Sequence record: PX405663.1
Length of the DNA: 45,326 nucleotides
Direction: 5' to 3' (one strand)
From: a phage
Below the pieces are notes generated by a model. The model was not told the DNA's origin. It ran no database searches and saw only the letters and a program-made list of their open reading frames with translations. How positions within the stretch are numbered: position 1 is the first letter of the stretch; each line of letters begins with the position of its first letter. A program made the position numbers and the translations under genes. Shown one piece after another: positions 2,430 through 45,326 of the stretch.

Positions 2430-4694
2430 ATGAGCTTAATTAAATTCGCTGTAACACGACCCGCTAAAAAAGGCGAAAAAGCCAGGGCGGAAAACTTCCA
2501 GATGACCACCGATGAATTTTTCGAATTTATCAAAGATGCGAAAGAAATCTCATCGGTGCATATCAACAAGACGGAAGATAAAGCCGAGTATGCGCGCCGC
2601 AAGCGTAAGGCCGATGGCATCGTAGCATATACCAGTGACGGCCTTCGCCGCAAGACCAGTGCGGTGGACCGCTCGATCCTGTTCTTCGATATCGACCGTA
2701 CCGACACCCGCACCTTACGCCGCTGCCGTAAGGCGTTCATTGACGCGGGTCTGGAACATGTGTTTCACACCACTACCGGCGACCGTCACCCGCTTAAAGG
2801 TGGAACGCGTTGCGCTCGCTTCCTGGTACTCACTGACAAGCCTGTACCGGCTGAAGACCTGGGCCGCGTCCAGTATGCACTATTACACCAACTGGGTCTG
2901 TCAGATGTGGACTTCGACGACTGCACGAAAGACACAAACCGCCTGATGTACCTGCCCCACCAGCAGTCTGTTATTAAGTGCCACTATGGCAAGCGCGCCC
3001 GCGTCCGTCGTCTGCTCCGCCTGGCTGACAAGCTGGGGGTGGAAAAAGAGGAAGTACGCCGCGAGCTTACCCAGGGCGACGACGCAGTGGCAGACGGTAT
3101 TCTGGACTGGTGCTTCCAGGCAGGATTCGAGGAGTTATCTTCCGGGCGGGGCTATGAAGTGCCGTGCCCGAACGAACATCTGCACAGCGGCGAAGGGTCC
3201 ACCGCCATAATGGTCAAGGATGGCGAGATCCGTTTCAAGTGTATGCACACCGGCAACGAGTGTTGCTCGGAACTGAATAGACACCAGCACCTGGCGCTAC
3301 GTCTTATCGGGATCCCGGACCACCTGAACGTCGAGCCACACAATATGTCCCGTAAGCAAATCGCCGCCATCCTTCCGGGGCTGGACGACGAGGAAGTCGA
3401 ATCCTTATATGAACATATTGTTGATGCGGTTGGAGACGGCGAAGAATACGGCGTGTGCACCGATGCGGATCTGGATAACGAGCCGGTTGCGCTGTTCAGT
3501 AAGCACGACCCGATTATCGAGGGGTTGATTAACTTTAAATCGACCTGGTACATGGCGGGTGAGTCGAATATCGGTAAGTCTTTCTATGTGCTGGGCCAGA
3601 TGGGCGCGGTTGCCGCCGGTATTCCGTTTGGTGGCGCGAAGGTCGTCCAGTCTCATTGCTTCTATTTCGACGCGGAAGGTGGCGAAGCCTCTAACCAGCG
3701 TAAAGAAGCATTGCAGATTAAATATGAGCACGACCTGGACAAGCTGCACATTATAGACCTGCAGTCACGCGGCTGGGATATCACCAGCAAATCAGGCTTG
3801 CGCGAAGTTATCAGCTTTATCAACCGCACCGCTAACGGCGAACCGGTTGGCCTGGTGGCGTTCGACTCACTCAACCAGACTGTTGCGTTGCGGTCCGCTG
3901 ATGCTAAACCGTTCGACGAGAACAACGCCAGCGATATGGGTGAAGTGGTCAAAGCGCTGAAGGCCATCGCGGAAAATACAGGTGGCAGTGCGGGCGTCAT
4001 CCACCACCCGGCTAAAGGTGCAAACGGCAGCAGAACGCCACGCGGGTCCGGCGCGCTGCATGGTGCTGTCGATTCTGCGTTCTTCCTGGAACAGCCGGAC
4101 GACAACCAGCCCGGACAATTGAACCTGTATCATGAGAAGTCACGTAACGGCATCAAGCAAGCGCCGCGCGGCTTCGTCCTGCTCAAGTGCAAGGTGAAGG
4201 TGGATCTCCGCAAGTCAGAAGCGTTCGAGGCGCACCAGTCCACCAGCACCGGGCCAGACTTCGGCGACGTGGTTGCCGGATGGGACGTCAAGCCGATTGC
4301 CTCCACGCCACGCGACGAGACTCTCTACCTCGTACCGGTTGCCCTGGCACCTTTCGCTATTGAACAGGCGAAGGCAGCAGGCAAGGCCGCGGTTAAGGAA
4401 GAGAACACCGCCGGACCGCGCAACGAAAAAGAGAAAGTGCTTTATGCGGCACTGGAAAAACTGATGGAAGATAACCCGGACCATACTGGATTCAGTAAAT
4501 CGGCAATTGTCCGCCAGGCGGGACTCGCGAAAGGCGGCACTTCGACGAAGGCAATCGACGATATGGTGGAGCGCGGGGTGATAGGTTTTTACACCGATCC
4601 GCACACCGGGGCCATCTATGGGTCGTCTAATTTGGTCATCAAATCGGATATCCCTATCACGCTTTCCGCGACCGATGACGATTTAAAAGATTAA
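2430..4694 (+). CDS. DNA primase-helicase (primase-polymerase-like N-terminal domain, zinc-binding region, P-loop NTPase/helicase C-terminal half)
   Basis: 754-aa ORF; FFDIDRTD and HVFHTTTGD primase-like motifs; CPNEHLHSG...CMHTGNEC zinc motif; Walker A GESNIGKS. Confidence 0.75.
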   Translation: MSLIKFAVTRPAKKGEKARAENFQMTTDEFFEFIKDAKEISSVHINKTEDKAEYARRKRKADGIVAYTSDGLRRKTSAVDRSILFFDIDRTDTRTLRRCRKAFIDAGLEHVFHTTTGDRHPLKGGTRCARFLVLTDKPVPAEDLGRVQYALLHQLGLSDVDFDDCTKDTNRLMYLPHQQSVIKCHYGKRARVRRLLRLADKLGVEKEEVRRELTQGDDAVADGILDWCFQAGFEELSSGRGYEVPCPNEHLHSGEGSTAIMVKDGEIRFKCMHTGNECCSELNRHQHLALRLIGIPDHLNVEPHNMSRKQIAAILPGLDDEEVESLYEHIVDAVGDGEEYGVCTDADLDNEPVALFSKHDPIIEGLINFKSTWYMAGESNIGKSFYVLGQMGAVAAGIPFGGAKVVQSHCFYFDAEGGEASNQRKEALQIKYEHDLDKLHIIDLQSRGWDITSKSGLREVISFINRTANGEPVGLVAFDSLNQTVALRSADAKPFDENNASDMGEVVKALKAIAENTGGSAGVIHHPAKGANGSRTPRGSGALHGAVDSAFFLEQPDDNQPGQLNLYHEKSRNGIKQAPRGFVLLKCKVKVDLRKSEAFEAHQSTSTGPDFGDVVAGWDVKPIASTPRDETLYLVPVALAPFAIEQAKAAGKAAVKEENTAGPRNEKEKVLYAALEKLMEDNPDHTGFSKSAIVRQAGLAKGGTSTKAIDDMVERGVIGFYTDPHTGAIYGSSNLVIKSDIPITLSATDDDLKD

Positions 4695-4794
4695 ATTTTG
4701 CGCGCATTGGTTGCCATTTTGCGTGCTTTTAGTCGGTCGTATTGGTTGCCGTGTAGTGTAAATATAGTGAATAGTTATGCAATAAAACTGCATA

Positions 4795-4965
4795 AAGTAA
4801 GCGGGACAAAAAGCGGGACAACCAGGGGGCGGGACAAAGCGGGACAGCACCCCTGTCCCGCCCCGGATGACGCGGCCTGGAGAGGAGCGGGACAGCGGGA
4901 CAGCACCCCAGTCTTTCAGACTAGACGGGGGGTCTGGCACCCCCCTCGTCTGAGACTGCATAAAA
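4795..4965. repeat. noncoding array 1: GCGGGACA(A/G) repeats in direct and inverted orientation ending in a conserved 51-bp imperfect hairpin (4908..4958)
   Basis: At least 7 copies of GCGGGACA within about 120 bp including the palindrome GGGACAGCACCCCTGTCCC; near-identical copy of the terminal element at 22101..22150. Confidence 0.8.
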
Positions 4966-5112: not shown

Positions 5113-5169
5113 ATTGGTTGCACCCACCCTGGCACCCTGCTATATTGGTTGCACACCAACATGAGGACC
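5113..5169 (+). promoter_or_regulatory. tandem TATTGGTTGCA promoter-like motifs with TATATT -10 and conserved leader
   Basis: TTGCAC, 17 nt, TATATT; 27-nt stretch TATATTGGTTGCACACCAACATGAGGA is identical to the minus-strand sequence at 16214..16240. Confidence 0.55.
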
Positions 5170-5174
5170 GAACA

Positions 5175-5501
5175 ATGAAAGCGATTATCTGGAATTACGC
5201 AATGGCTATGGCGGCGGCACAAGAAGCGGCGGAGTTCGCCGGTGAAGGAGCGGAAGCGGTCGAAAGACTATCGGCAGCGTGGTCCGTTGTTCGCGTCACG
5301 CAGCAGGCCATCGCCTGTATGCTTGAGCGCCGCTTCGACACTATGGGAGAGATCCAGCCGTTGGCGAACGCTATCCAGGACTACGCGCTGGCATTTGCCC
5401 GTGAGCGCCTGGCGTATCGCTTCGGGATCGGTGAGACGGCAGCGACAAACGTCGCCCGGATTAAAGCCCAGCGCGAACTATTCGCCCAGCTTGCGAAATA
5501 A
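5175..5501 (+). CDS. hypothetical early protein (108 aa)
   Basis: ORF track frame, start moved to the ATG 7 nt after GAGGA. Confidence 0.5.
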   Translation: MKAIIWNYAMAMAAAQEAAEFAGEGAEAVERLSAAWSVVRVTQQAIACMLERRFDTMGEIQPLANAIQDYALAFARERLAYRFGIGETAATNVARIKAQRELFAQLAK

Positions 5502-7293: not shown

Positions 7294-7584
7294 ATGGATA
7301 AGCTAAACGAGTGGTTATTCGCCCTTGCGTGTCTTGCTGGTGGCTTCGTCGGCGCACGCATTCATGGCGAGGCAACGAAAGGGCCGTTGAATTTCGTTTT
7401 ATATGTCGTAGTTGGCTTCCTGTGTGCCATATTTGGTGCGCCAGCTATTGCCGAGTGGTCTGGTTTGTCTGGCGAGCGCACTGTCGCCGGTTTGGGCTTC
7501 GTAACTGCGATCTTCTGGATGCCAATCGCTGACCGGATCCGGGAGACTATTGCGTCGTTCCGACTTCCGGGGGGTGCAAAATGA
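7294..7584 (+). CDS. holin-like membrane protein (96 aa)
   Basis: ORF track; 2-3 predicted hydrophobic helices; sits immediately upstream of the endolysin. Confidence 0.5.
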   Translation: MDKLNEWLFALACLAGGFVGARIHGEATKGPLNFVLYVVVGFLCAIFGAPAIAEWSGLSGERTVAGLGFVTAIFWMPIADRIRETIASFRLPGGAK

Positions 7585-7826
7585 TTATCTCCGTCCTGTT
7601 GTTTGTTATCATAGGGGCTTCGTCCCTGTTTAACGTGTATGCGCCGTCCGTCCGGGATGGCATTTTCGGTCGGGTGCTGTATCTGTTAACGGCAATGGTC
7701 TGTATTATCGGATTGTTGCAAACAGGAGACGTATCGGATACCACCTGGACCGCGTTAATCTGGCTGTTTGCATTGCGCACCCTGCGTAATGCTGTTTTGA
7801 ATGGGGTAAAACATGCGATTCAGTGA
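7581..7826 (+). CDS. small membrane protein, holin/antiholin candidate (81 aa)
   Basis: ORF track; three hydrophobic segments; ATGA overlap with upstream gene. Confidence 0.5.
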   Translation: MIISVLLFVIIGASSLFNVYAPSVRDGIFGRVLYLLTAMVCIIGLLQTGDVSDTTWTALIWLFALRTLRNAVLNGVKHAIQ

Positions 7827-8304
7827 TAACGGTCTACGATTTACGGCAGCATGGGAGGCTTTCAGCCCGGTGCCGTATTTCGCGACCAAGAAAGAGCAGG
7901 CCCGCGGCCTGTATACCTGGGGCTATGGTCACACCGGCACTAATCCGCCTCGAAGCATTACCCGTGCTGAAGCGCTGGAACTGCTCAAGCGCGATGTGGC
8001 GTATGCCGAGGACTGGGTGAACAAATACGCACATCCGAGCATTAACCAGGCGCAATTCGACGCGCTGGTGGACCTGGTAATCAACGCCGGTCCAGGTCCG
8101 ATCGTACCGGATGACGTCGCGAATGATTTCGATGATGCGGTGCGACTGGGAGACTGGGCGAAGGTCCGGGCTACTCTGCCGCAGTTCCGCAAGCAGGGTG
8201 GATCGGTGCTCTTAGGTCTGGTCCGTCGTGCAATCGGCAGACAGGCGCTATTCGATGGTAAGCAGTGGGACGTTGCCGAGCGAATCGGGCGTAACGCAGC
8301 ATAA
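7813..8304 (+). CDS. endolysin, lysozyme-like (glycoside hydrolase family 24-like)
   Basis: 163-aa ORF with AWEAF...YTWGYGHTG...QFDALVDLVINAG pattern characteristic of phage lysozymes. Confidence 0.8.
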   Translation: MRFSDNGLRFTAAWEAFSPVPYFATKKEQARGLYTWGYGHTGTNPPRSITRAEALELLKRDVAYAEDWVNKYAHPSINQAQFDALVDLVINAGPGPIVPDDVANDFDDAVRLGDWAKVRATLPQFRKQGGSVLLGLVRRAIGRQALFDGKQWDVAERIGRNAA

Positions 8305-13316: not shown

Positions 13317-14403
13317 TCAATATATGGCGGATCGCATGATTCGCCGTCACATCTTCACCCAGCGCCTGAGTAATGACCAGGCGCGGAGGGTGCTGGCTAT
13401 GTGGGAGAAGTTCCGGCCCACGTTACTGGGTAAGCTGACCGAGTTACTTGATGGCAAAAAGTCCATGAATAACAAAGCACTTACCACACTGTTAACGCAA
13501 CTCGACAAGACCGTCAAAACGGAACTGCGCACCGAGTTTAAGGCGTTGGCTGAAAGCCTTCAGGAGTTCGCCGACACCGAGGCTGATTATCTCGCCGACA
13601 CATTAACGGCAGCGATCCAGCCGGTAGTCGCCGTACCGGCGGTCGAGGTGGTTGGCGTAGTGACCGGCTCGCAGATCGCAGCAACGGCAATGAAAAACCC
13701 GTTCCAGGGCAATACCATGATGCAATGGCCCGACTCACTTTCTGAGTGGACCAGGACGCAGATCGGTAATCAGGTGCGGGCGGGATTCATCCAGGGCAAG
13801 CCAACGATGGAAATTATCGCGGACGTGAGGCGCGCGCTAGGCGGTCGTAGTGCGCAAGCTATATCGAGCGTTGTTAAGTCCGCAGTCAACCACTATGCGG
13901 CGACCGCCCGCGAATTAATGGTGAAAGCTAATGACGATATTCTCGAAGGTCGCCAATGGTTATCTACATTGGACACGCATACTTCTCCCATGTGCCAGCT
14001 ACGCGATCGCCTGTTTTATCCGGTTGATGTTACTCCCGATACGAAAGGGAAGCGAGGCGGAAAAGTGGTGGCGGGATCACAATATGGCGCCGGTCCGGGC
14101 AAGCTACATTATTGCTGCCGCTCGACGGAGACGTGGAAAGTCAAAGGTATGGAAGATTGGCCCAGTGGTAAGCGTCCGGCACTGAAGGCCGACGCAGGCA
14201 GATTGCTGAGTGAGCAGGTCGACGCGCAGACTGATTTCTTCTCATGGGTGCAGCGCCAGCCGCGCCATATCCTGGAGGAATTATATGGAGTGCAACGCGC
14301 CGACCAGATTATGCGCGGCGTGAAAGTGCCGAAGATGTTCGCCGATTCTGGTGAACTGATGTCTATTGCACAGCTTAAAAACCGGGGGTTATGGCGTGAT
14401 TAA
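13300..14403 (+). CDS. head morphogenesis / minor head protein
   Basis: 367-aa ORF directly after portal, overlapping its end; position and size. Confidence 0.6.
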   Translation: MAKTINQYMADRMIRRHIFTQRLSNDQARRVLAMWEKFRPTLLGKLTELLDGKKSMNNKALTTLLTQLDKTVKTELRTEFKALAESLQEFADTEADYLADTLTAAIQPVVAVPAVEVVGVVTGSQIAATAMKNPFQGNTMMQWPDSLSEWTRTQIGNQVRAGFIQGKPTMEIIADVRRALGGRSAQAISSVVKSAVNHYAATARELMVKANDDILEGRQWLSTLDTHTSPMCQLRDRLFYPVDVTPDTKGKRGGKVVAGSQYGAGPGKLHYCCRSTETWKVKGMEDWPSGKRPALKADAGRLLSEQVDAQTDFFSWVQRQPRHILEELYGVQRADQIMRGVKVPKMFADSGELMSIAQLKNRGLWRD

Positions 14404-14725
14404 ATACGCAGCGATTGGGCTGGTTATCGGTCTGGCGGTAGGATTCTGGCTAGGTGACTCCTATCGCGCTGGCGTAGTGGCGGAGGCGGCGCAAGAAGCG
14501 CAAGCCCAAGCCCAACGGCAGCAAACTAAAGTTGTTGAGCGCTCCGTGCAGGCCGAACAAGCCCGCGACGTAGAATACCGGACTATCACGAAAGAGGTTG
14601 TTAAATATGTTACGCGCCCTAACCGCCCTGATTGTAGTTTTGATGCTGAGCGCGTGCGGATCAAGCAACGTGCCGTTGATGCCGCTAACGGAGTCGGCGC
14701 TGCGACAGCCGTGCAAGTTCGATAA
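14396..14725 (+). CDS. i-spanin (Rz-like): N-terminal TM helix plus periplasmic coiled coil; start uncertain (track ORF 14366..14725 begins at TTG, GTG at 14396 has a GGGGG SD)
   Basis: AIGLVIGLAVGFWLG TM then AEAAQEAQAQAQRQQ coiled coil; o-spanin gene starts inside it in another frame. Confidence 0.55.
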   Translation: MIKYAAIGLVIGLAVGFWLGDSYRAGVVAEAAQEAQAQAQRQQTKVVERSVQAEQARDVEYRTITKEVVKYVTRPNRPDCSFDAERVRIKQRAVDAANGVGAATAVQVR

Positions 14726-14837
14726 CCCGTCCGCGGACCCCGACGAAGATTTGATGATTGACGTGAAAAATATGGAGTGCGGGGCGAGGCTGAGGGCGCA
14801 GGTCCTGGAGTTGCAGCAAATAATGAAGGGGCCGTAA
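14598..14837 (+). CDS. o-spanin (Rz1-like outer-membrane lipoprotein), overlapping the i-spanin gene
   Basis: 79 aa; signal peptide with lipobox LSAC; Pro-rich mature part; AAAGAGG SD. Confidence 0.6.
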   Translation: MLNMLRALTALIVVLMLSACGSSNVPLMPLTESALRQPCKFDNPSADPDEDLMIDVKNMECGARLRAQVLELQQIMKGP

Positions 14838-14849
14838 TGGCCCCTTTTT
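14826..14849 (+). terminator. rho-independent terminator at the o-spanin stop
   Basis: GGGGCCGTAATGGCCCC followed by TTTTT. Confidence 0.5.
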
Positions 14850-14851
14850 CG

Positions 14852-15616
14852 TTATCGCGGAATACCGCAAATCTCGTTGAGAGTTTTCACATCCAGCGCC
14901 ACCGCCGTGGATTTTGGCTTGTCCGGGTAAGGGATGAATTGCTCAACTTCAGGCCATGCCTTAATCAGCTTCTTGTCAGTATTGTGCAGGTCCAGCACAC
15001 CGGTAACGGTCAACTTGAACGCGTCATACTTAGCCCGCAACTCACGGCGGGCCTTGTCGTTACGGTCCAGGCGCTTACAGAAATCATGATCCGCCGGGAA
15101 ATCCGCACGGCAGTGTGGCTTATAGATCGGCAGCGCTTTCCCGTCCTCGTCCACTTCGCACACTGACGCGAGCATAACTTCTTCAAACCCCGGTACGATA
15201 TCGCCTAAATCGGGGGATAGCTTATTCATGTATTTATATTCCCAGTATCCGCGATGTGCGCGGCATTGGCGACCGTCACCGCTCAAGGATAAGGTGCGAA
15301 CATTTCCGCCTGCGTTGATTTCGAAAGTGGCGTCGTAAACGCTGCCGATACCTTTCGGGCGGTCGGCGTCATAACGATATGTCGCCTTGTTGGTGTAGAC
15401 GCAGACGCCGTACATCTGCGACGGGTCATCGCTGATTGCCTCGATACGCTCGCGGAGCGCTGCGAACGTGCGAATGCCTTCCGGCATACAGTCCAGCGTA
15501 ATGGCGTACGCCAGGTCGCGAGAGTCCATCATGATTTGTTTGGCTTCGGTTGCGATTTCGTGGTCGCGCAGGATGTTAGCCAGAATCTGATTTTTAATGT
15601 CTTTCGTCAGTCTCAT
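14852..15616 (-). CDS. hypothetical protein (254 aa), antisense island within the morphogenesis module
   Basis: ORF track; GAGGA SD 8 nt upstream; no motif recognised. Confidence 0.6.
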   Translation of the reverse strand: MRLTKDIKNQILANILRDHEIATEAKQIMMDSRDLAYAITLDCMPEGIRTFAALRERIEAISDDPSQMYGVCVYTNKATYRYDADRPKGIGSVYDATFEINAGGNVRTLSLSGDGRQCRAHRGYWEYKYMNKLSPDLGDIVPGFEEVMLASVCEVDEDGKALPIYKPHCRADFPADHDFCKRLDRNDKARRELRAKYDAFKLTVTGVLDLHNTDKKLIKAWPEVEQFIPYPDKPKSTAVALDVKTLNEICGIPR

Positions 15617-15697
15617 TTTTGTGTCCTCGTTGTTGGGGCTTTCGCCCCGTTTGGTTTAGTTAAACTTGATGTTGCCGCCAATAGGGTGCTTTGTTAG

Positions 15698-16210
15698 CTA
15701 CAAACGCATCGGCATGATAACAAGGAAGGCACCGCCTTTGAACAGCACACGTGTCGCCTTGTCTACTCCCTGAAATTCCAGTTTTAAGCTATCAAACTTA
15801 CGGTCGAACAATTTAGCAATTTTGCAGGCGTCGGACAGGTATACCCCGGCAAACCCTATAGCCTCCACTTTAGCGCTGTCGAAAGACGTAACACGACGCC
15901 AGTCTGGGAATCTGCCGTCTATGATCTCTACGGGTATGGTACCGATTAATACGTCTTTACTATCAAAGAACGCAGCGGATGTGCCGTCTATGTTGCAGTA
16001 TTCGAATTTTGTAGGTAAGCGGCCTTTAATTGCTACTATTTTACTTTCACCTTCGGGAATAACCGCGGACCCGCAGAACAAACGATGACCGTCGGTGGCC
16101 ACGATGAATCCTTTCTCGTCGAAAAATACACCCTTCAGATAGTACCGCACGTCATTAGTTGCGGCGCACATCATAGCGGCTTTAAGATCGGCATAGTTAA
16201 CTTTAATCAT
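15698..16210 (-). CDS. truncated DnaN-like protein (DNA polymerase III beta sliding-clamp domain fragment, about 170 aa)
   Basis: Track ORF 15698..16657 trimmed to the ATG 7 nt after GAGGA; VRYYLKGVFFDEKGFIVATDGHRLF, IIDGRFPDWRRV and C-terminal VIMPMRL closely match conserved E. coli DnaN segments. Confidence 0.7.
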   Translation of the reverse strand: MIKVNYADLKAAMMCAATNDVRYYLKGVFFDEKGFIVATDGHRLFCGSAVIPEGESKIVAIKGRLPTKFEYCNIDGTSAAFFDSKDVLIGTIPVEIIDGRFPDWRRVTSFDSAKVEAIGFAGVYLSDACKIAKLFDRKFDSLKLEFQGVDKATRVLFKGGAFLVIMPMRL

Positions 16211-16213
16211 TGT

Positions 16214-16262
16214 CATTTCCTCATGTTGGTGTGCAACCAATATACTGCAACCAACATACGCA
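16214..16262 (-). promoter_or_regulatory. tandem TATTGGTTGCA promoter-like motifs driving the antisense DnaN-like operon
   Basis: Minus strand reads TATGTTGGTTGCAGTATATTGGTTGCACACCAACATGAGGA; 27 nt identical to 5143..5169. Confidence 0.55.
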
Positions 16263-16358
16263 ACGCAAGCGAATTTTGCGATTATTTTTATCGCTGATAA
16301 TATTAGAAGCGTGAAGTCAAGCGGGTGGCCCGCTTTGCCACAATCCCAGGGGGATAGC

Positions 16359-17060
16359 ATGAAACTTACTAAAGCTGAATATGACGCGTTGCCGGAAGGT
16401 ATGAAAGCGCTTTTTGTTGCCGATGGTGACGGGTATAAATCAACGTTCATGACCGCCGAAGAAGTACAGGCGGAGATCAAGGGTCTGAAAGACAACAACG
16501 CGAAGCTGGTTAGCGAGAAGAAAGCAGAAGCCGAACGCCGCGCCGAAGCCGAGCGCCTTGCGAAAGAGAAAGAGGAAGCCGCAGCGCGCAAAAATGGCGA
16601 CCTCGAAGCGATCGACAAGTCCTGGAAAGATAAGTTTGCGAAACACGAAGCAGACACATCGGGAAAAATCGAAGCCTACCGCAAGCAGATCCACGACCTA
16701 ACCATCGGCAGCGCTGCCAAAGATTTGGCCTCGAAGCTGTTCGGTAAGAATGCGGGCATCATGCAACGCCACGTTATGGACCGTCTGACGCTGGAAGATG
16801 GCGAAGACGGCAGCTTGAAGGTGCGTGTCTTGCAGGATGGCAAACCGTCAGCGCTGACTATGGAAGAGCTTGAAAAAGAGTTCCGTAATAACGCCGATTT
16901 TGCATCCGTCCTGGCGGGCACGCCAGCCGGTGGTGCGCCGAGCAAACCGACGCAGGTCGTCGAAGATGTGAAGTCTAAAATCACTATGGGCCACAGCTTT
17001 GGCATCACCGACCTGACGAAACAGGCGGGTGAAATCATCGCTAAAATGGGCGACGAGTAA
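16359..17060 (+). CDS. scaffolding protein (candidate)
   Basis: Track ORF 16311..17060 trimmed to the ATG after AGGGGGA; Ala/Glu/Lys-rich coiled coil; directly upstream of the major capsid gene. Confidence 0.6.
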   Translation: MKLTKAEYDALPEGMKALFVADGDGYKSTFMTAEEVQAEIKGLKDNNAKLVSEKKAEAERRAEAERLAKEKEEAAARKNGDLEAIDKSWKDKFAKHEADTSGKIEAYRKQIHDLTIGSAAKDLASKLFGKNAGIMQRHVMDRLTLEDGEDGSLKVRVLQDGKPSALTMEELEKEFRNNADFASVLAGTPAGGAPSKPTQVVEDVKSKITMGHSFGITDLTKQAGEIIAKMGDE

Positions 17061-21823: not shown

Positions 21824-22160
21824 TTAAGCGGGACAGGCGGGACGTCCCGTTCTGTCCCGTTCCGTCCCGCCTCCTGCAAAACTGCATACTTACGCACCAC
21901 ATTTGCATAAACTAAAAGCGGGACAGGGGTGCTGTCCCGATCCGTCCCACCCCAAAAATGTGAATGTCTATTCAGTTTTAGTGCATAAAACAAACGGGAC
22001 AAAAAGCGGGACAGAATTGGGCGGGACAAAGCGGGACAGCACCCCTGTCCCCGCCAGTGCTGCCGCGGGTTTTAGCCAATCAGGACAGGCGGGACAAAGC
22101 CCAGTCTTTCAGACTAGACGGGGGTCGATGGCCCCCCTCGTCTGAGACTGAATAAGGTTT
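21824..22160. repeat. noncoding array 2: more than 15 GGGACA-core repeats in both orientations plus the conserved 51-bp hairpin (22101..22150), inserted between the tail chaperone and tape measure genes
   Basis: GCGGGACAG, GCGGGACG, CGTCCCG, CTGTCCCG and others; the palindrome GGGACAGCACCCCTGTCCC is shared with array 1. Confidence 0.8.
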
Positions 22161-31102: not shown

Positions 31103-32068
31103 TCAATACATATTTGGGATGACGAGTAGCGGGGTAGGTACGGCAATATTTTTACCCGGCATCTGAAATTGCTGCCGTGAGTAGTTGCCGATGACGCGGT
31201 TTTTAGCGACGCGCACATTATTACCCGCCATGCGAATACCGTTCATGCGGACGTGATTATAGCCCCCGTTGTTCTGAATCAGCGCACCGGTGTATGAAAG
31301 CTGGATCAGGCTGTTTCCAATATTCTGGTCGCCCGTTCCGATGTTAATAGTGCGGTCATATACGAACGGCTTGTTCACCGTCGAGAACGTGACCTGATTC
31401 TGGCTATTCGTCATGGTGATCCCGGCCCCTGGCGTTGGTGGTGTATTGTTGAATATTACCAAATCCATGTCCACCGAAGCCGCCACATCGTCGATGCCAC
31501 CGTAGGACGCGTTGCGGACGATAATACTGCCGCCGTCGAAGCCTACTGATACGTTGCCATCGTCCCATCGGGCGAATGGGACACCGCTAACGGGCAATGC
31601 CATACTACCGTTGACGCGCACGCGCTGTGCGTATCGGCAGGTCATTAGCTTAGTCACGTTGGATATAGCGGTGAAGTCCGTCGAGTTCTCCACCAGTAAG
31701 CCCGCGTTACGTGAACCAACCGGCAGCACTTCCATTATGACGCCTGCCCATTGTGGTAAGCCAGAGTACGCGCCATACGCATCCTCCCCGCGCAGGGTGA
31801 TACCACTATTCCCGTTGCGGGTAACAGACGTAACGTAAAACGGGTCGGGAATTACCAGGGTCTGGTCGAATACCTCAATCACTTCTACCGGGCGAGTAAG
31901 CGCGACGACGACCTGCGACCCCTCCGTAAGAGGGGTATTAATCGTAAGCGTCTTGTTGGACTGGCAGCGCTGATCAAACGCAGTGCAGTATGACGGAGCG
32001 CGCAACCCGGCGGTTATCTCCATTACCGGCCTGCCGTCGTTATAGTCGATAAGTATTCCAGCGCCCAT
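31103..32068 (-). CDS. Asn/Gly/Val-rich beta-rich protein (about 321 aa), antisense between J and the tail fibre; receptor-related candidate
   Basis: Track ORF 31103..32077; the second ATG has the better GGGAG spacing. Confidence 0.5.
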   Translation of the reverse strand: MGAGILIDYNDGRPVMEITAGLRAPSYCTAFDQRCQSNKTLTINTPLTEGSQVVVALTRPVEVIEVFDQTLVIPDPFYVTSVTRNGNSGITLRGEDAYGAYSGLPQWAGVIMEVLPVGSRNAGLLVENSTDFTAISNVTKLMTCRYAQRVRVNGSMALPVSGVPFARWDDGNVSVGFDGGSIIVRNASYGGIDDVAASVDMDLVIFNNTPPTPGAGITMTNSQNQVTFSTVNKPFVYDRTINIGTGDQNIGNSLIQLSYTGALIQNNGGYNHVRMNGIRMAGNNVRVAKNRVIGNYSRQQFQMPGKNIAVPTPLLVIPNMY

Positions 32069-32070
32069 TA

Positions 32071-32292
32071 TTACCACTCCCGTGATTTAACTGATACTGT
32101 GCCTGAGAAGTTGCCGTCGCTATCGGATGACAGCCCAGTGAATCGCATGTCTACATCTCCTGCCGGGACTTTTTGCCCGTCAACGTAGCGCAACATGCAG
32201 CTACCGTAAGCAACCGTAACGCAATCGCCGTTGTTGCGATCTACGGCGCAACCGGACAAAAGAACCGCACAAATCATAATTAAAGTTTTCAT
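32071..32292 (-). CDS. small lipoprotein (about 73 aa), candidate superinfection-exclusion lipoprotein
   Basis: Track ORF 32071..32355 trimmed to MKTLIMICAVLLSGCAV (signal peptide with lipobox LSGC). Confidence 0.55.
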   Translation of the reverse strand: MKTLIMICAVLLSGCAVDRNNGDCVTVAYGSCMLRYVDGQKVPAGDVDMRFTGLSSDSDGNFSGTVSVKSREW

Positions 32293-32334
32293 GGTATCAT
32301 CTCTTATATTTGGTTGAGTTTTAGTATTACACCG

Positions 32335-32362
32335 CTCAACCAGGATTGCAACCAATTTACGA
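32335..32362 (-). promoter_or_regulatory. TATTGGTTGCA-type promoter-like motif oriented toward the antisense lipoprotein gene
   Basis: Minus strand reads AAATTGGTTGCAATCC about 45 nt upstream of the lipoprotein start; overlaps the tail fibre SD on the other strand. Confidence 0.45.
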
Positions 32363-35837: not shown

Positions 35838-35905
35838 TTTTTAGTGGGGGCGGTATTGCCCCCGACGTGATTAAGATACTGCAACCAACCTATTGGTTGC
35901 AAGTG
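35838..35905 (-). promoter_or_regulatory. inverted pair of TGCAACCAA/TTGGTTGCA motifs followed by a leader hairpin
   Basis: Plus strand 35880..35902 TGCAACCAACCTATTGGTTGCA; GGGGGCGGTATTGCCCCC hairpin between motif and SD. Confidence 0.45.
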
Positions 35906-36360
35906 AATTTTGCAACGTTTATCGCATAAATTTTCGGGACCAGATCGCCGCACGCCCGACGAATTGCCGCGATGTTCTTCGGACAGTCTTCAATGATGAC
36001 CAGTTCCGACACGTCCGCGTAACAGACCATTTTGAACACGGCGCACGCCTTAAACTCTGGTGGCGGGGTGTCGTCCAGCATGTGGCGCATAAACAACCGG
36101 CCTACAGGGAATACCTCCAATTGCTCGGCGGTAGTGTCCCAACATTCTCTCTGCCGGTTGGTCAGATACGCGATCTCGAAGCCTTGATCTCTGTACATGC
36201 GCAGCAGCGGCAGCATATCCATGTTCAGGTCTTCGCGTACGTGCGCTTTGTGCCACTTCGCCCAAAATGTTGATTTGGTTTTTATACCCGGAACCAGGTC
36301 GGCACGCGCATCGCTTGAACCGTTAATAACGCCATCCAGATCGCAAATCAGTAATTTCAT
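35890..36360 (-). CDS. HAD-superfamily phosphatase-like protein
   Basis: 156 aa; N-terminal LICDLDGVI matches HAD motif I; GAGGAG SD. Confidence 0.5.
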   Translation of the reverse strand: MKLLICDLDGVINGSSDARADLVPGIKTKSTFWAKWHKAHVREDLNMDMLPLLRMYRDQGFEIAYLTNRQRECWDTTAEQLEVFPVGRLFMRHMLDDTPPPEFKACAVFKMVCYADVSELVIIEDCPKNIAAIRRACGDLVPKIYAINVAKFTCNQ

Positions 36361-37501: not shown

Positions 37502-37580
37502 TCCAGGTATTAAAAAGGGCGTCCAAACCGGACACCCTCAATATAATGCAACCAATACGATTATGCAACCAATTTACGCA
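37502..37580 (-). promoter_or_regulatory. tandem TATTGGTTGCA motifs with TATATT, followed by leader hairpin plus T-run
   Basis: Minus strand reads AAATTGGTTGCATAATCGTATTGGTTGCATTATATTGAG then GGGTGTCCGGTTTGGACGCCC TTTTT then SD and ATG. Confidence 0.5.
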
Positions 37581-43460: not shown

Positions 43461-43478
43461 GATTAGTGGGCTTTGCCC

Positions 43479-44261
43479 TTAACGGCGGCGACGTTTGCGT
43501 GGCGCTTCGTCTTCGTCGTCGTCCTCATCTTCGTCATCGCGTGGCTTACGACGTTTGCGAGGTTTTTCATCTTCCTCGTCGTCGTCGTCATCGCGGCGCT
43601 TGGACTTTTTGGACTTGCGCGGCTTGTCATCTTCATCATCGTCATCACGACGTTTTGACTTCTTAGCCTTGCGCGGTGCTTCGTCTTCGTCATCGTTGTC
43701 CAGGTCTTCATCGGAGCAAGAAGAACCACCACCACCGAAGGATTCGCCGTCATCACGGAAGCGCAGACCCAGCAAGCCAGCACCGAGTCCCTTGCCGTTG
43801 GTATTGTTCCACGCCCAGATATCGAGTGACACGTTGCAATAACAACCGGAGTAGATCTCCTGGCCTTCGATCTCGTCGCCGTCGATGGTCAGGCCTTGTT
43901 CCGTCTGCTTCTCGCCGAGTGACGTTTGAATGATCGGCTGTTTGAACGATTTGGCGTTGATGTACAACATGCCTTCGAACTCTTCGGTTACTTCATCGCG
44001 CTCGTCGCCGTCGCGAACTGCGCATTCCTTAGAATCCTGTGCGTAGTGGCGGTCCATCCACTTATCGGCATTCTTCTCGGATTTCAGCTTGTCGGTGAGC
44101 ACTGCGCGCGCTGCCGCTTCCACTTTGTCCACCTGCGGATCTTCTTTATCAAGAAGAATCACGGCGCGGTATGCCGGTTTTTGTCCATCCTGTTTAGGGG
44201 TATCACGTTCCCAAATTTTCAGGAAACATACGCGCACATTTTTCAGGTTGACTTTAGCCAT
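43479..44261 (-). CDS. DUF2815-like putative ssDNA-binding protein with charged repeat C-terminal tail
   Basis: Track ORF 43479..44282 trimmed to MAKVNLKNVRV with GAGGAA SD; C-terminal repeats of DDDDE/KPRKSKKSKRR blocks; sits between exonuclease and polymerase genes. Confidence 0.5.
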   Translation of the reverse strand: MAKVNLKNVRVCFLKIWERDTPKQDGQKPAYRAVILLDKEDPQVDKVEAAARAVLTDKLKSEKNADKWMDRHYAQDSKECAVRDGDERDEVTEEFEGMLYINAKSFKQPIIQTSLGEKQTEQGLTIDGDEIEGQEIYSGCYCNVSLDIWAWNNTNGKGLGAGLLGLRFRDDGESFGGGGSSCSDEDLDNDDEDEAPRKAKKSKRRDDDDEDDKPRKSKKSKRRDDDDDEEDEKPRKRRKPRDDEDEDDDEDEAPRKRRRR

Positions 44262-44351
44262 TTTCCAATTCCTCATTTTCACATGTATCGGGGCTATTGG
44301 AAGCCACCCCGTTCGGCTTGGTTGCTAATCTACTTGGTTGCGCCTAAGCGG

Positions 44352-44594: not shown

Positions 44595-45326
44595 TGCTTA
44601 AGTCCTCATCAGTGGCTTCAGACCATGCAGGGCGCGGGTCGTCGATTGGGGCTAATACCGGTTTAGCCGGTGCGCGTGTGATTTTATCACACAGCTTCGC
44701 CCACACTTTTGGTTTTTCGTCCTTCAATACCTTCTCGGCATCCGTAGGGCTGAGCAATGTTTCTTTGTACATCACATCGCGCTTGATCCGGGCCTTCGTG
44801 AAGATTTCAATCACTTCGCTCTCGTCCGCCCACTTACGGATCCCTTCCTTACCGGCAACCATCTTGAGGCCCAGCGATTCGCCATCGCCCGCCATTACAG
44901 CCTTAAATACCGCGGACTCGATCGCTTTGATGTGCTGGCGCATTGCGTCCAGGCCCTCATAAGCCTTGCGCAGTTCCGCAGCGCTCATAGCTCCGGGGGC
45001 CGCTTCTTTCTTACCACGCTTCGCACGTCGTGCCGCCTTCCGGGCTTCGCGGGCCATATTGCGGTCGTGGTTGGCGCATTCTTCCTCTGTCGCAATACTC
45101 ACGTCGTCGCCCAGGTCTTCGTCGGTTGCCGTTGGCGGTGTCATCGTATCGATTGCGGCCTTAGCGCGGGCACTACACTGATCCGCAAATCGGCACCACT
45201 GGCACGCATCAACGCTGGGGCGGAAGTCGGCACGGGTAAGCCCCTTCTTGCCTCGGGAATACGCCTCCAGTGCGGCAATAGCGCGCTTGGATGCAAACTT
45301 CGCGAATATCTCCAGCGCTTCTACCG
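44587..45326 (-). CDS. C-terminal part of the junction-spanning Cas4/RecB-family exonuclease (unique part 44587..45199; 45200..45326 duplicates 1..127)
   Basis: Track ORF 44587..45144 is the downstream part of a frame that stays open upstream to the window end and is in frame with the minus-strand ORF at 818..1. Confidence 0.7.
   Translation of the reverse strand, partial: VEALEIFAKFASKRAIAALEAYSRGKKGLTRADFRPSVDACQWCRFADQCSARAKAAIDTMTPPTATDEDLGDDVSIATEEECANHDRNMAREARKAARRAKRGKKEAAPGAMSAAELRKAYEGLDAMRQHIKAIESAVFKAVMAGDGESLGLKMVAGKEGIRKWADESEVIEIFTKARIKRDVMYKETLLSPTDAEKVLKDEKPKVWAKLCDKITRAPAKPVLAPIDDPRPAWSEATDEDLSNE
45200..45326. repeat. 127-bp exact duplicate of positions 1..127 (assembly overlap of a circular or terminally redundant genome)
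   Basis: Identical sequence at both window ends; the coding frame is continuous across the join. Confidence 0.85.

Follow-up and report, generated by a model that had tools for sequence, protein, structure and literature searches.

The antisense nmad5 gene of a Dhillonvirus genome, its exchangeable upstream slot and the question of DNA modification

Two adjacent genes on the minus strand interrupt the head module of the phage genome in sequence record PX405663.1, and the question raised by this locus is what a small antisense unit does amid head genes. The window, i.e., the whole stretch of 45,326 nucleotides analysed here, represents the entire genome of a Dhillonvirus, one of the small siphoviruses that infect E. 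coli and Shigella; around the locus, 3.2 kb share 92.6% identity with Shigella phage EP23, and matches to this segment were obtained in 159 phage records. Our main subject is the second gene of the unit, an open reading frame (ORF) of 254 codons at 14852..15616 (minus strand). The first-pass annotation, made from the letters and a list of ORFs, had found no recognisable motif in its product and had read it, together with the DnaN-like gene before it, as acquired cargo.

Identity of the gene and its published genetics

The ORF itself was borne out: it starts with ATG, and the ratio of nonsynonymous to synonymous substitution rates (dN/dS) has a median of 0.12 over 54 pairs of Dhillonvirus orthologues, which indicates strong purifying selection and supports coding (median dS among the eleven orthologues, 0.54). 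The claim that its product lacks a motif had to be given up. Residues 1–253 align with positions 1–206 of 206, i.e., the full length, of Pfam profile PF18757, Nucleotide modification associated domain 5 (Nmad5), with a score of 201.8 bits where 27 is required (E 1.7e-59), and the protein also matches PHROG 1965 (E 1.3e-61), which carries no function. Nor is it an orphan, as the named family comprises at least 834 representative clusters at E ≤ 0.001 in a profile search, mostly of about 180–230 residues. Over 254/254 residues and without gaps, the protein shares 90% identity with SM_A8 Nmad5, and the window and this phage agree in gene order and flanking genes. The ORF is nmad5 of the Dhillonviruses, and its product belongs over its full length to the phage-specific Nmad5 family. 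The gene is already described in the literature, and its identification is not a discovery.

Conservation was read from a 108-sequence family alignment. N247 is its sole invariant residue, and G104, T213, L217, W221, P222, P229 and L246 are conserved in at least 90% of the sequences. The N-terminal pattern is R2-L3-T4...I7...I11...N14, the centre keeps two glycines (G104, G113), the C-terminal part carries the motif T213-x-x-K216-L217-x-x-x-W221-P222-E223...P229, and the extreme C-terminus reads L246-N247-x-x-C/I-G251-L/I-P253; these family-conserved residues, from R2-L3-T4 through G251 and P253, are all present in the window protein. Position 216 is lysine in 66 and arginine in 16 sequences (K/R in 82/108), and K216 is invariant in the 13/13 Dhillonvirus sequences checked. 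The Dhillonvirus proteins exceed the family norm of about 200 residues by some 50, with insertions in the central β-region (about 78–94, 118–130 and 144–165). By region, dN/dS is 0.036 in the terminal thirds (residues 1–45 and 176–254) and 0.19 in the middle; positive selection in this variable middle was considered and rejected, the median being 0.19 and the maximum 0.43.

The same gene was studied in the Dhillonvirus phages SM_A8 and SM_S22 by Yamashita et al. (2025, Commun Biol; PMC11846954) in connection with Tmn, a membrane defence of the KAP/YobI-type nucleoside triphosphatases. In that work, Tmn escape mutants carry nmad5 K216E (K296E in a longer annotation); reverting the change brings Tmn sensitivity back, and introducing it confers escape. 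A phage with nmad5 deleted is viable yet still blocked by Tmn, and cloning of nmad5 failed, apparently owing to toxicity (PMC11846954). Nmad5 was taken there as a DNA modification enzyme, and a separate anti-Tmn gene of these phages also showed single-residue changes of specificity (PMC11846954). To judge from the sequences, the escape by K216E, the viable deletion and the toxicity should be reasonably transferable to the window gene. Because the point mutant escapes while the deletion does not, K216E most likely acts through a change or gain of function.

The longer numbering of SM_S22 (296 − 216 = 80) could be reproduced with one related locus, where a 334-residue form is encoded by positions 3761-4765 (locus L017). 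Its additional 80 residues are the antisense translation of the 5′ end of the scaffold gene and of the divergent promoter region, and the same 80-residue peptide precedes the start of the DnaN-like gene in the window ORF 15698..16657. As a conserved ribosome-binding site and the start MRLTKDIK lie inside the 334-residue form, the extension is probably untranslated, a mis-called start and thus an annotation artefact. K296E is the same change as K216E.

The antisense island and its upstream slot

Of 159 related records, about 146 contain nmad5 (query coverage at least 80%, all at 80% identity or more), and it invariably sits with the spanin genes on one side and the scaffold gene on the other. 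Copies are truncated in a few relatives (SM_S24, Teewinot), and in the type phage HK578 (JQ086375.1, 5078-5500; locus L056) the antisense island consists of a 135-residue slot gene without nmad5. Such absence and truncation fit the published viability of the deletion. HK578 may also serve as a natural nmad5-null strain for comparison. Hence nmad5 is nearly a genus-level gene rather than sporadic cargo, and it is the slot upstream of it that is the hypervariable exchange hot spot.

At least five alternatives occupy this slot behind one conserved promoter/leader module. The window, EP23 and AV129 are among the genomes with a DnaN-like gene of 170 codons (16 records reach 80% identity); a 104-residue gene (PHROG 24635) is found in about 61 records including SM_A8, the 135-residue gene in about seven and a 53-residue gene in four, and StarDew, KS_S9 and Gluttony-like phages have no gene there. 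None of the 104-, 135- and 53-residue proteins has a Pfam match, and only the first belongs to a PHROG, which has no function. Homologues of each slot allele are also encoded by unrelated phages that infect Pantoea, Serratia, Erwinia or Salmonella, a distribution that indicates horizontal exchange of the alleles. Snoke, a Kagunavirus, has the DnaN-like gene by itself at the equivalent antisense position of its head module, with a bidirectional terminator beside it, and in L042, a metagenomic phage, Nmad5 alone is encoded in antisense within an apparent structural module, as judged by gene sizes. From the slot comparison and from these two phages, we therefore take the antisense island for an old, reusable slot in this siphovirus group. 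The cargo reading of the first-pass annotation thus stands in part: the unit is non-structural and linked to Tmn (PMC11846954), but the 254-residue gene, present in about 146/159 records, is not sporadic cargo. Its expectation that related phages would carry different cargo at this locus is confirmed for the upstream slot; the same two genes are not found in all relatives, nor is clear homology to structural proteins.

Ksap1, the trigger of Avs2 in Dhillonviruses, was also considered for this locus and rejected, since its gene, which encodes 74 residues, is found in the other arm, flanked by those for the methyltransferase and the phosphatase.

The slot gene of the window (15698..16210, minus strand, 170 codons) ends 81 nucleotides upstream of nmad5. 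Its start is the second of two in-frame ATG codons, seven nucleotides past GAGGA, in agreement with the EP23 annotation. In a phmmer search of the PDB, β sliding clamps were matched at E 6e-8 to 2e-7, with query residues 10–144 on clamp residues of about 140–304, i.e., domain II and part of domain III. Profile scores stayed below their cutoffs for both Pfam DNA_pol3_beta_2 (E 2e-4, 22.1 against 27) and TIGR00663 (5e-6, 25.7 against 137.65); PHROGs 3007 and 947 were matched as well. A canonical β clamp is a ring subunit of about 366 residues and three domains that scores above these cutoffs, whereas the 170-residue protein is less than half a subunit, so that it is a DnaN homologue but no canonical clamp. 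The RefSeq label 'RusA-like resolvase' derives from the PHROG name and found no support here. Matches to this mini-clamp were obtained in 265 records of enterobacterial siphoviruses, mostly without Nmad5; 16 records reach 80% identity, and 250 others are distant homologues.

Does the mini-clamp form a system with its neighbour? Together the two could be a host-takeover module acting on the host replisome, e.g., by poisoning or hijacking the β clamp, which would explain the toxicity. In the window phage nmad5 is adjacent to, and probably co-transcribed with, the DnaN-like gene, it was apparently toxic to clone (PMC11846954), and the Tmn trigger of phage T2, RIIB, is described as replisome-associated (PMC13001434). 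However, most Dhillonviruses hold another gene or none in the slot, most mini-clamp phages lack Nmad5 and vice versa, phage C130_2 has both genes about 5 kb apart, and no canonical clamp-binding motif was seen when the Nmad5 sequence was read by eye. A conserved mini-clamp–Nmad5 pair was rejected on similar grounds, since upstream neighbours of about 170 residues elsewhere are unrelated to the mini-clamp and the phage distributions of the two genes largely do not overlap. Because their pairing is confined to a minority of Dhillonviruses, we do not treat them as a functional system, and a takeover module appears quite improbable.

The unit does have its own promoter inside the head module, as the first-pass annotation had proposed. 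The promoter and leader (16207..16268, minus strand) comprise a −35-like element TTGCGT at 16268-16263, an 18-nucleotide spacer, a −10 element TATATT at 16244-16239, the ribosome-binding site GAGGA and the ATG at 16210. A consensus promoter scan overlooked this site, because its −35 element matches just 3/6 positions. We argue that it is real because everything between the scaffold start codon and the ribosome-binding site is kept in 11/11 Dhillonvirus loci examined, whatever the first gene, and because a 38-nucleotide inverted repeat of 89% identity links 16207-16244 (−10 element, leader, ribosome-binding site and start codon) with 5141-5178. The latter copy follows the helicase-primase gene and stands at the start of an operon running towards the lysis genes; a further related segment is 35873-35913. 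In Hungariovirus-like phages, Nmad5 is encoded in an operon between helicase-primase and holin/lysozyme. This suggests that cassette and promoter were relocated or duplicated between the helicase-primase operon and the antisense island.

This promoter is built around a TTGGTTGCA motif, two copies of which are situated in the antisense promoter/leader (16254-16246 and 16240-16232, minus strand). Eleven exact copies of this 9-mer were counted, and 22 with no more than one mismatch against 11.5 ± 3.2 expected. The sites (4707-4750, 5114-5153, 16232-16254, 35880-35901, 37547-37572 and 44318-44342) are mostly paired at operon starts, and the pairs adjoin or overlap a TATATT −10 element. TTGGTTGCA is a candidate for a phage-specific promoter/operator element of a regulon that includes the nmad5 operon.

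Between the two genes lies a hairpin, GGGGC-GAAA-GCCCC (15634..15649), terminator-like on the plus strand only. It is absent from loci with other slot alleles and thus travels with the DnaN-like cassette. As the minus strand has no U-tract after it, co-transcription of both genes across the 81-nucleotide spacer, which had been assumed earlier, is plausible. Inside the 3′ end of the DnaN-like gene, a sigma-70-like site (15714..15742, minus strand; TTCAAA, 17 nucleotides, TATCAT, preceded by TG) is the sole consensus match in the region, a number not significant alone (one against 2.4 expected in shuffled sequences); it is a possible weak internal promoter able to drive nmad5 alone.

Of the terminators said to bracket the unit, the one at the 3′ end was confirmed. 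Four nucleotides past the nmad5 stop codon, where the Rz/Rz1 genes (plus strand) and nmad5 converge, there is a bidirectional intrinsic terminator (14825..14847), G+C-rich with 10-bp and 8-bp stems and six G-C pairs, which has a U5 tail on the plus strand and a weaker tail on the minus strand. The 5′ end of the unit is a divergent promoter region and not a terminator.

Location alone could suggest a head-assembly or structural protein, as nmad5 is placed between genes for head morphogenesis and for the scaffold. The gene runs on the opposite strand from its own promoter, is absent in HK578 and truncated in some relatives, its deletion is viable (PMC11846954), homologues reside in early operons of unrelated phages, and no similarity to structural proteins was found in Pfam, solved-structure and BFVD comparisons. 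We give this explanation hardly any credence.

Modification enzyme or binding protein

The name 'Nucleotide modification associated domain 5' reportedly goes back to a study of Iyer et al. in 2013. It rests on gene neighbourhood: in YuA/M6/SN1-like Pseudomonas phages, Nmad5 is encoded inside a thymidine hypermodification cassette (see also PMC9476957). Elsewhere, homologues were found in other surroundings. In lambdoid and Stx phages (HK542c102, SH2026Stx1 gp17) the homologue directly follows N in the pL operon, and further homologues adjoin genes for RecT, ERF, SSB, RdgC, Kil, DNA methyltransferases, helicase-primase or cI-type repressors; in early operons they also occur near immunity genes. 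Scans of bacterial genomes for Nmad5 loci returned none at first and one Enterobacter prophage the second time; broad alignments were too divergent for such a locus search in bacterial genomes.

If Nmad5 were a genuine DNA- or nucleotide-modifying enzyme, Tmn would sense modified DNA and K216E would change the modification. This interpretation was adopted in PMC11846954 and can draw on the family name, on the place in the YuA/M6/SN1 cassette (PMC9476957) and on the recurrence of DNA methyltransferases among Nmad5 neighbours. The protein itself shows little of what is expected of such an enzyme. No Asp/His/Cys/Ser catalytic constellation or cofactor motif is conserved in the family alignment, all 108/108 members consist of the Nmad5 domain alone without fusions, and no additional Pfam domain was found in them at a convincing level.

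An AlphaFold2 model built with the 108-sequence alignment (mean predicted local distance difference test (pLDDT) 89.7, predicted template modelling score 0.82) was used in place of a poor eight-sequence run (pLDDT 60). In the predicted fold, a small β-sheet is enclosed by long N- and C-terminal helices. Among solved structures, enzymes included, there was neither a neighbour of this fold nor a sequence match, and no likeness to a transferase, kinase or glycosylase was detected. Foldseek against BFVD retrieved an Nmad5-named protein (E 1.8e-27, template modelling score 0.80), a protein of phage C130_2 (1.1e-10) and other phage proteins down to 2e-5; the matches at E ≤ 0.02 are all Nmad5-named or unnamed phage proteins, none with an assigned function. 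The predicted fold is thus one that other members of the family share. Membrane or nucleic-acid-binding character was considered and rejected, since the isoelectric point is near neutral (6.2; family median 6.9) and the sequence, apparently of a soluble protein, contains no hydrophobic or membrane segment and no obvious nucleic-acid-binding segment. The literature we found reports no defined biochemical activity for Nmad5.

Biochemistry and distribution point the same way. Lee et al. report an in vitro reconstitution of the M6 5-NedU pathway, step by step, from enzymes that were produced recombinantly and purified (PMC8989533). The enzymes used were gp51–gp55 (aGPT-Pplase, pyridoxal phosphate (PLP) enzyme, radical S-adenosylmethionine (SAM) enzyme and kinase) and, as far as listed, no Nmad5; the word Nmad is absent from that paper. 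M6 hypermodification is thus accounted for by other enzymes, and most Nmad5 homologues belong to phages free of such a cassette (lambdoid, Stx, Dhillonviruses). In the close relative EP23 no hypermodification cassette is annotated, a statement that covers the EP23 annotation only, with no family-library scan of the other genes of the window; the only modification gene of EP23 encodes a small methyltransferase about 20 kb off in the other arm. The association with modification genes that gave the family its name, a contextual feature and not a sequence criterion, is lacking at the window locus. Moreover, Dhillonviruses are restriction-sensitive relative to 7-deazaguanine-modified phages (PMC8594841), and deletion of nmad5 should remove the modification and shift Tmn sensing, but does not (PMC11846954). 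Nmad5 itself is probably not a DNA-modifying enzyme, and we consider an enzyme whose product is sensed by Tmn to be improbable.

A protein that is non-essential yet strongly conserved under purifying selection could, alternatively, be dedicated to counter-defence: it would inhibit one or several host immune systems, and K216E would retune or extend its specificity to Tmn. The gene adjoins a hypervariable cargo slot, lies in the early pL accessory region of lambdoid phages and interacts genetically with Tmn (PMC11846954), and single-residue changes of specificity are on record for the separate anti-Tmn gene. Nevertheless, wild-type Nmad5 is not known to inhibit any defence system, and the terminal dN/dS of 0.036 contrasts with the rapid evolution that anti-defence proteins often show. 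That the family spans phages of very different hosts favours a conserved target over a sporadic defence. PADLOC gave no hits for Nmad5 or the DnaN-like protein at E values up to 1, although its library represents defence rather than anti-defence proteins. On balance, a dedicated inhibitor of host immunity is a possible but unlikely explanation.

We prefer to see Nmad5 as a non-catalytic accessory protein of early or middle infection that works by binding a partner, a reading to which we give a probability of roughly 45%. Candidate partners are a defence protein of the host and/or a conserved component, of host or phage origin, in DNA replication, recombination or modification. The near-invariant helical ends (RLTxxI...N, TxxK216LxxxWPE and the C-terminal LNxxCGxP) would form the binding surface, and the lineage-variable central β-region would be a tolerated or adaptive surface. 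Charge reversal at K216 would alter the interface and so render Tmn immunity ineffective; by analogy with T2 RIIB, the mutant protein might act as an unproductive decoy of Tmn or sequester the real Dhillonvirus trigger.

Several lines converge on this reading. The non-catalytic part is argued from the missing catalytic constellation, the Nmad5-only architecture, the function-less BFVD matches and an M6 pathway that runs without Nmad5. An early or accessory role is suggested by the homologues in early operons and by the promoter/leader copy beside the helicase-primase gene. The interface rests on the slowly evolving ends, on K/R at position 216 in 82/108 sequences and on the separability of RIIB functions by a single residue. 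The apparent toxicity on cloning would agree with disturbance of some host process.

Other points weigh against a non-catalytic partner-binding protein. With its near-neutral isoelectric point and no telling segment, the sequence gives no clue to a target. In a fold without precedent, the lack of a catalytic motif would also be compatible with an enzyme, and as methyltransferases recur nearby, a modification role, e.g., as a specificity or recruitment factor, is conceivable. Finally, the decoy interpretation of K216E is drawn by analogy.

A broader version of the same idea would have a non-enzymatic, phage-wide binding module of unprecedented fold dock with its invariant termini on a conserved host or replisome component, the island being a promoter-equipped recombination slot in which small siphoviruses swap early accessory or counter-defence genes, and K216E producing a decoy of the Tmn sensor. 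In this combination we regard it as speculative and rather doubtful.

The label 'DNA modification enzyme' is unsupported by sequence, predicted fold, genomic distribution and the published M6 biochemistry; in consequence, Tmn escape should be read as a change of a protein interface and not as sensing of modified DNA. The upstream slot is a place to seek new accessory and counter-defence genes of these therapeutically used coliphages. Nmad5 itself, a widespread family with a confidently predicted fold without precedent and with K216E as a genetic handle, makes a reasonable, not urgent, target for biochemistry.

Other genome features and comparison with known systems

A few further features of the window deserve mention. 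Directly before the antisense island, the head module contains embedded Rz/Rz1-type spanin genes (14366-14837; the o-spanin begins MLNMLRALTALIVVLMLSACGSS), whereas the genes for holin and endolysin (about 7294-8304) are some 6 kb away. The two genes of the island had been called the only minus-strand genes of an otherwise plus-strand arm, which is incorrect: a second minus-strand pair (31103..32355), so annotated in StarDew, consists of a 324-residue gene resembling those for receptor-binding proteins, and probably encoding one, and a lipoprotein gene (MKTLIMICAVLLSGC...) that is likely to act in superinfection exclusion. Two intergenic modules of about 200 nucleotides (4767-4963 and 21826-22155), 17.19 kb apart, share GCGGGACA-type repeat arrays and a conserved CAGTCTTTCAGACTAGACGGGGG segment, with blocks of 71–100% identity plus inverted copies. 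Highly acidic, Asp/Glu-rich stretches in two minus-strand ORFs are encoded by repeats, both tandem and dispersed (families D1 and D3), at 1270-1825 and 43463-44282; the products could be DNA-mimic-like or disordered acidic proteins. A perfect 127-nucleotide direct repeat at the window ends (1-127 and 45200-45326) reflects either terminal redundancy or, if the genome is circularly permuted, an overlap left by the assembly.

How, then, does the window gene compare with the systems in which Nmad5 or Tmn have been met before? YuA gp15 and the M6/SN1 proteins belong to the same family, but their genes are flanked by those for kinase, aGPT-Pplase, radical-SAM and PLP enzymes, whereas the neighbours in the window are spanin, mini-clamp and scaffold genes. 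The proteins of HK542c102 and SH2026Stx1 (gp17) are closer in setting, being stand-alone Nmad5 proteins of an early accessory region with 34–35% identity over the C-terminal 80–100 residues. They differ in coming from temperate phages, in lying within the pL operon and not in an antisense island, in their length of 207 residues and in having no reported phenotype.

T2 RIIB, the subject of a 2026 preprint, triggers Tmn by direct binding, and a single residue separates binding from activation (PMC13001434); the protein is described there as replisome-associated. Like Nmad5, RIIB is early and non-essential, and in both a single residue decides the outcome of Tmn immunity (PMC13001434, PMC11846954). 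The two are unrelated in sequence, and loss of function of RIIB escapes Tmn whereas deletion of nmad5 does not, so that Nmad5 is not simply a Tmn trigger.

The closest counterparts are the Nmad5 proteins of SM_A8 and SM_S22, which have the genus, the locus between spanin and scaffold genes, the length of 254 residues and K216 in common with the window gene. In SM_A8 the upstream slot is occupied by the 104-residue gene, in the window by the DnaN-like one.

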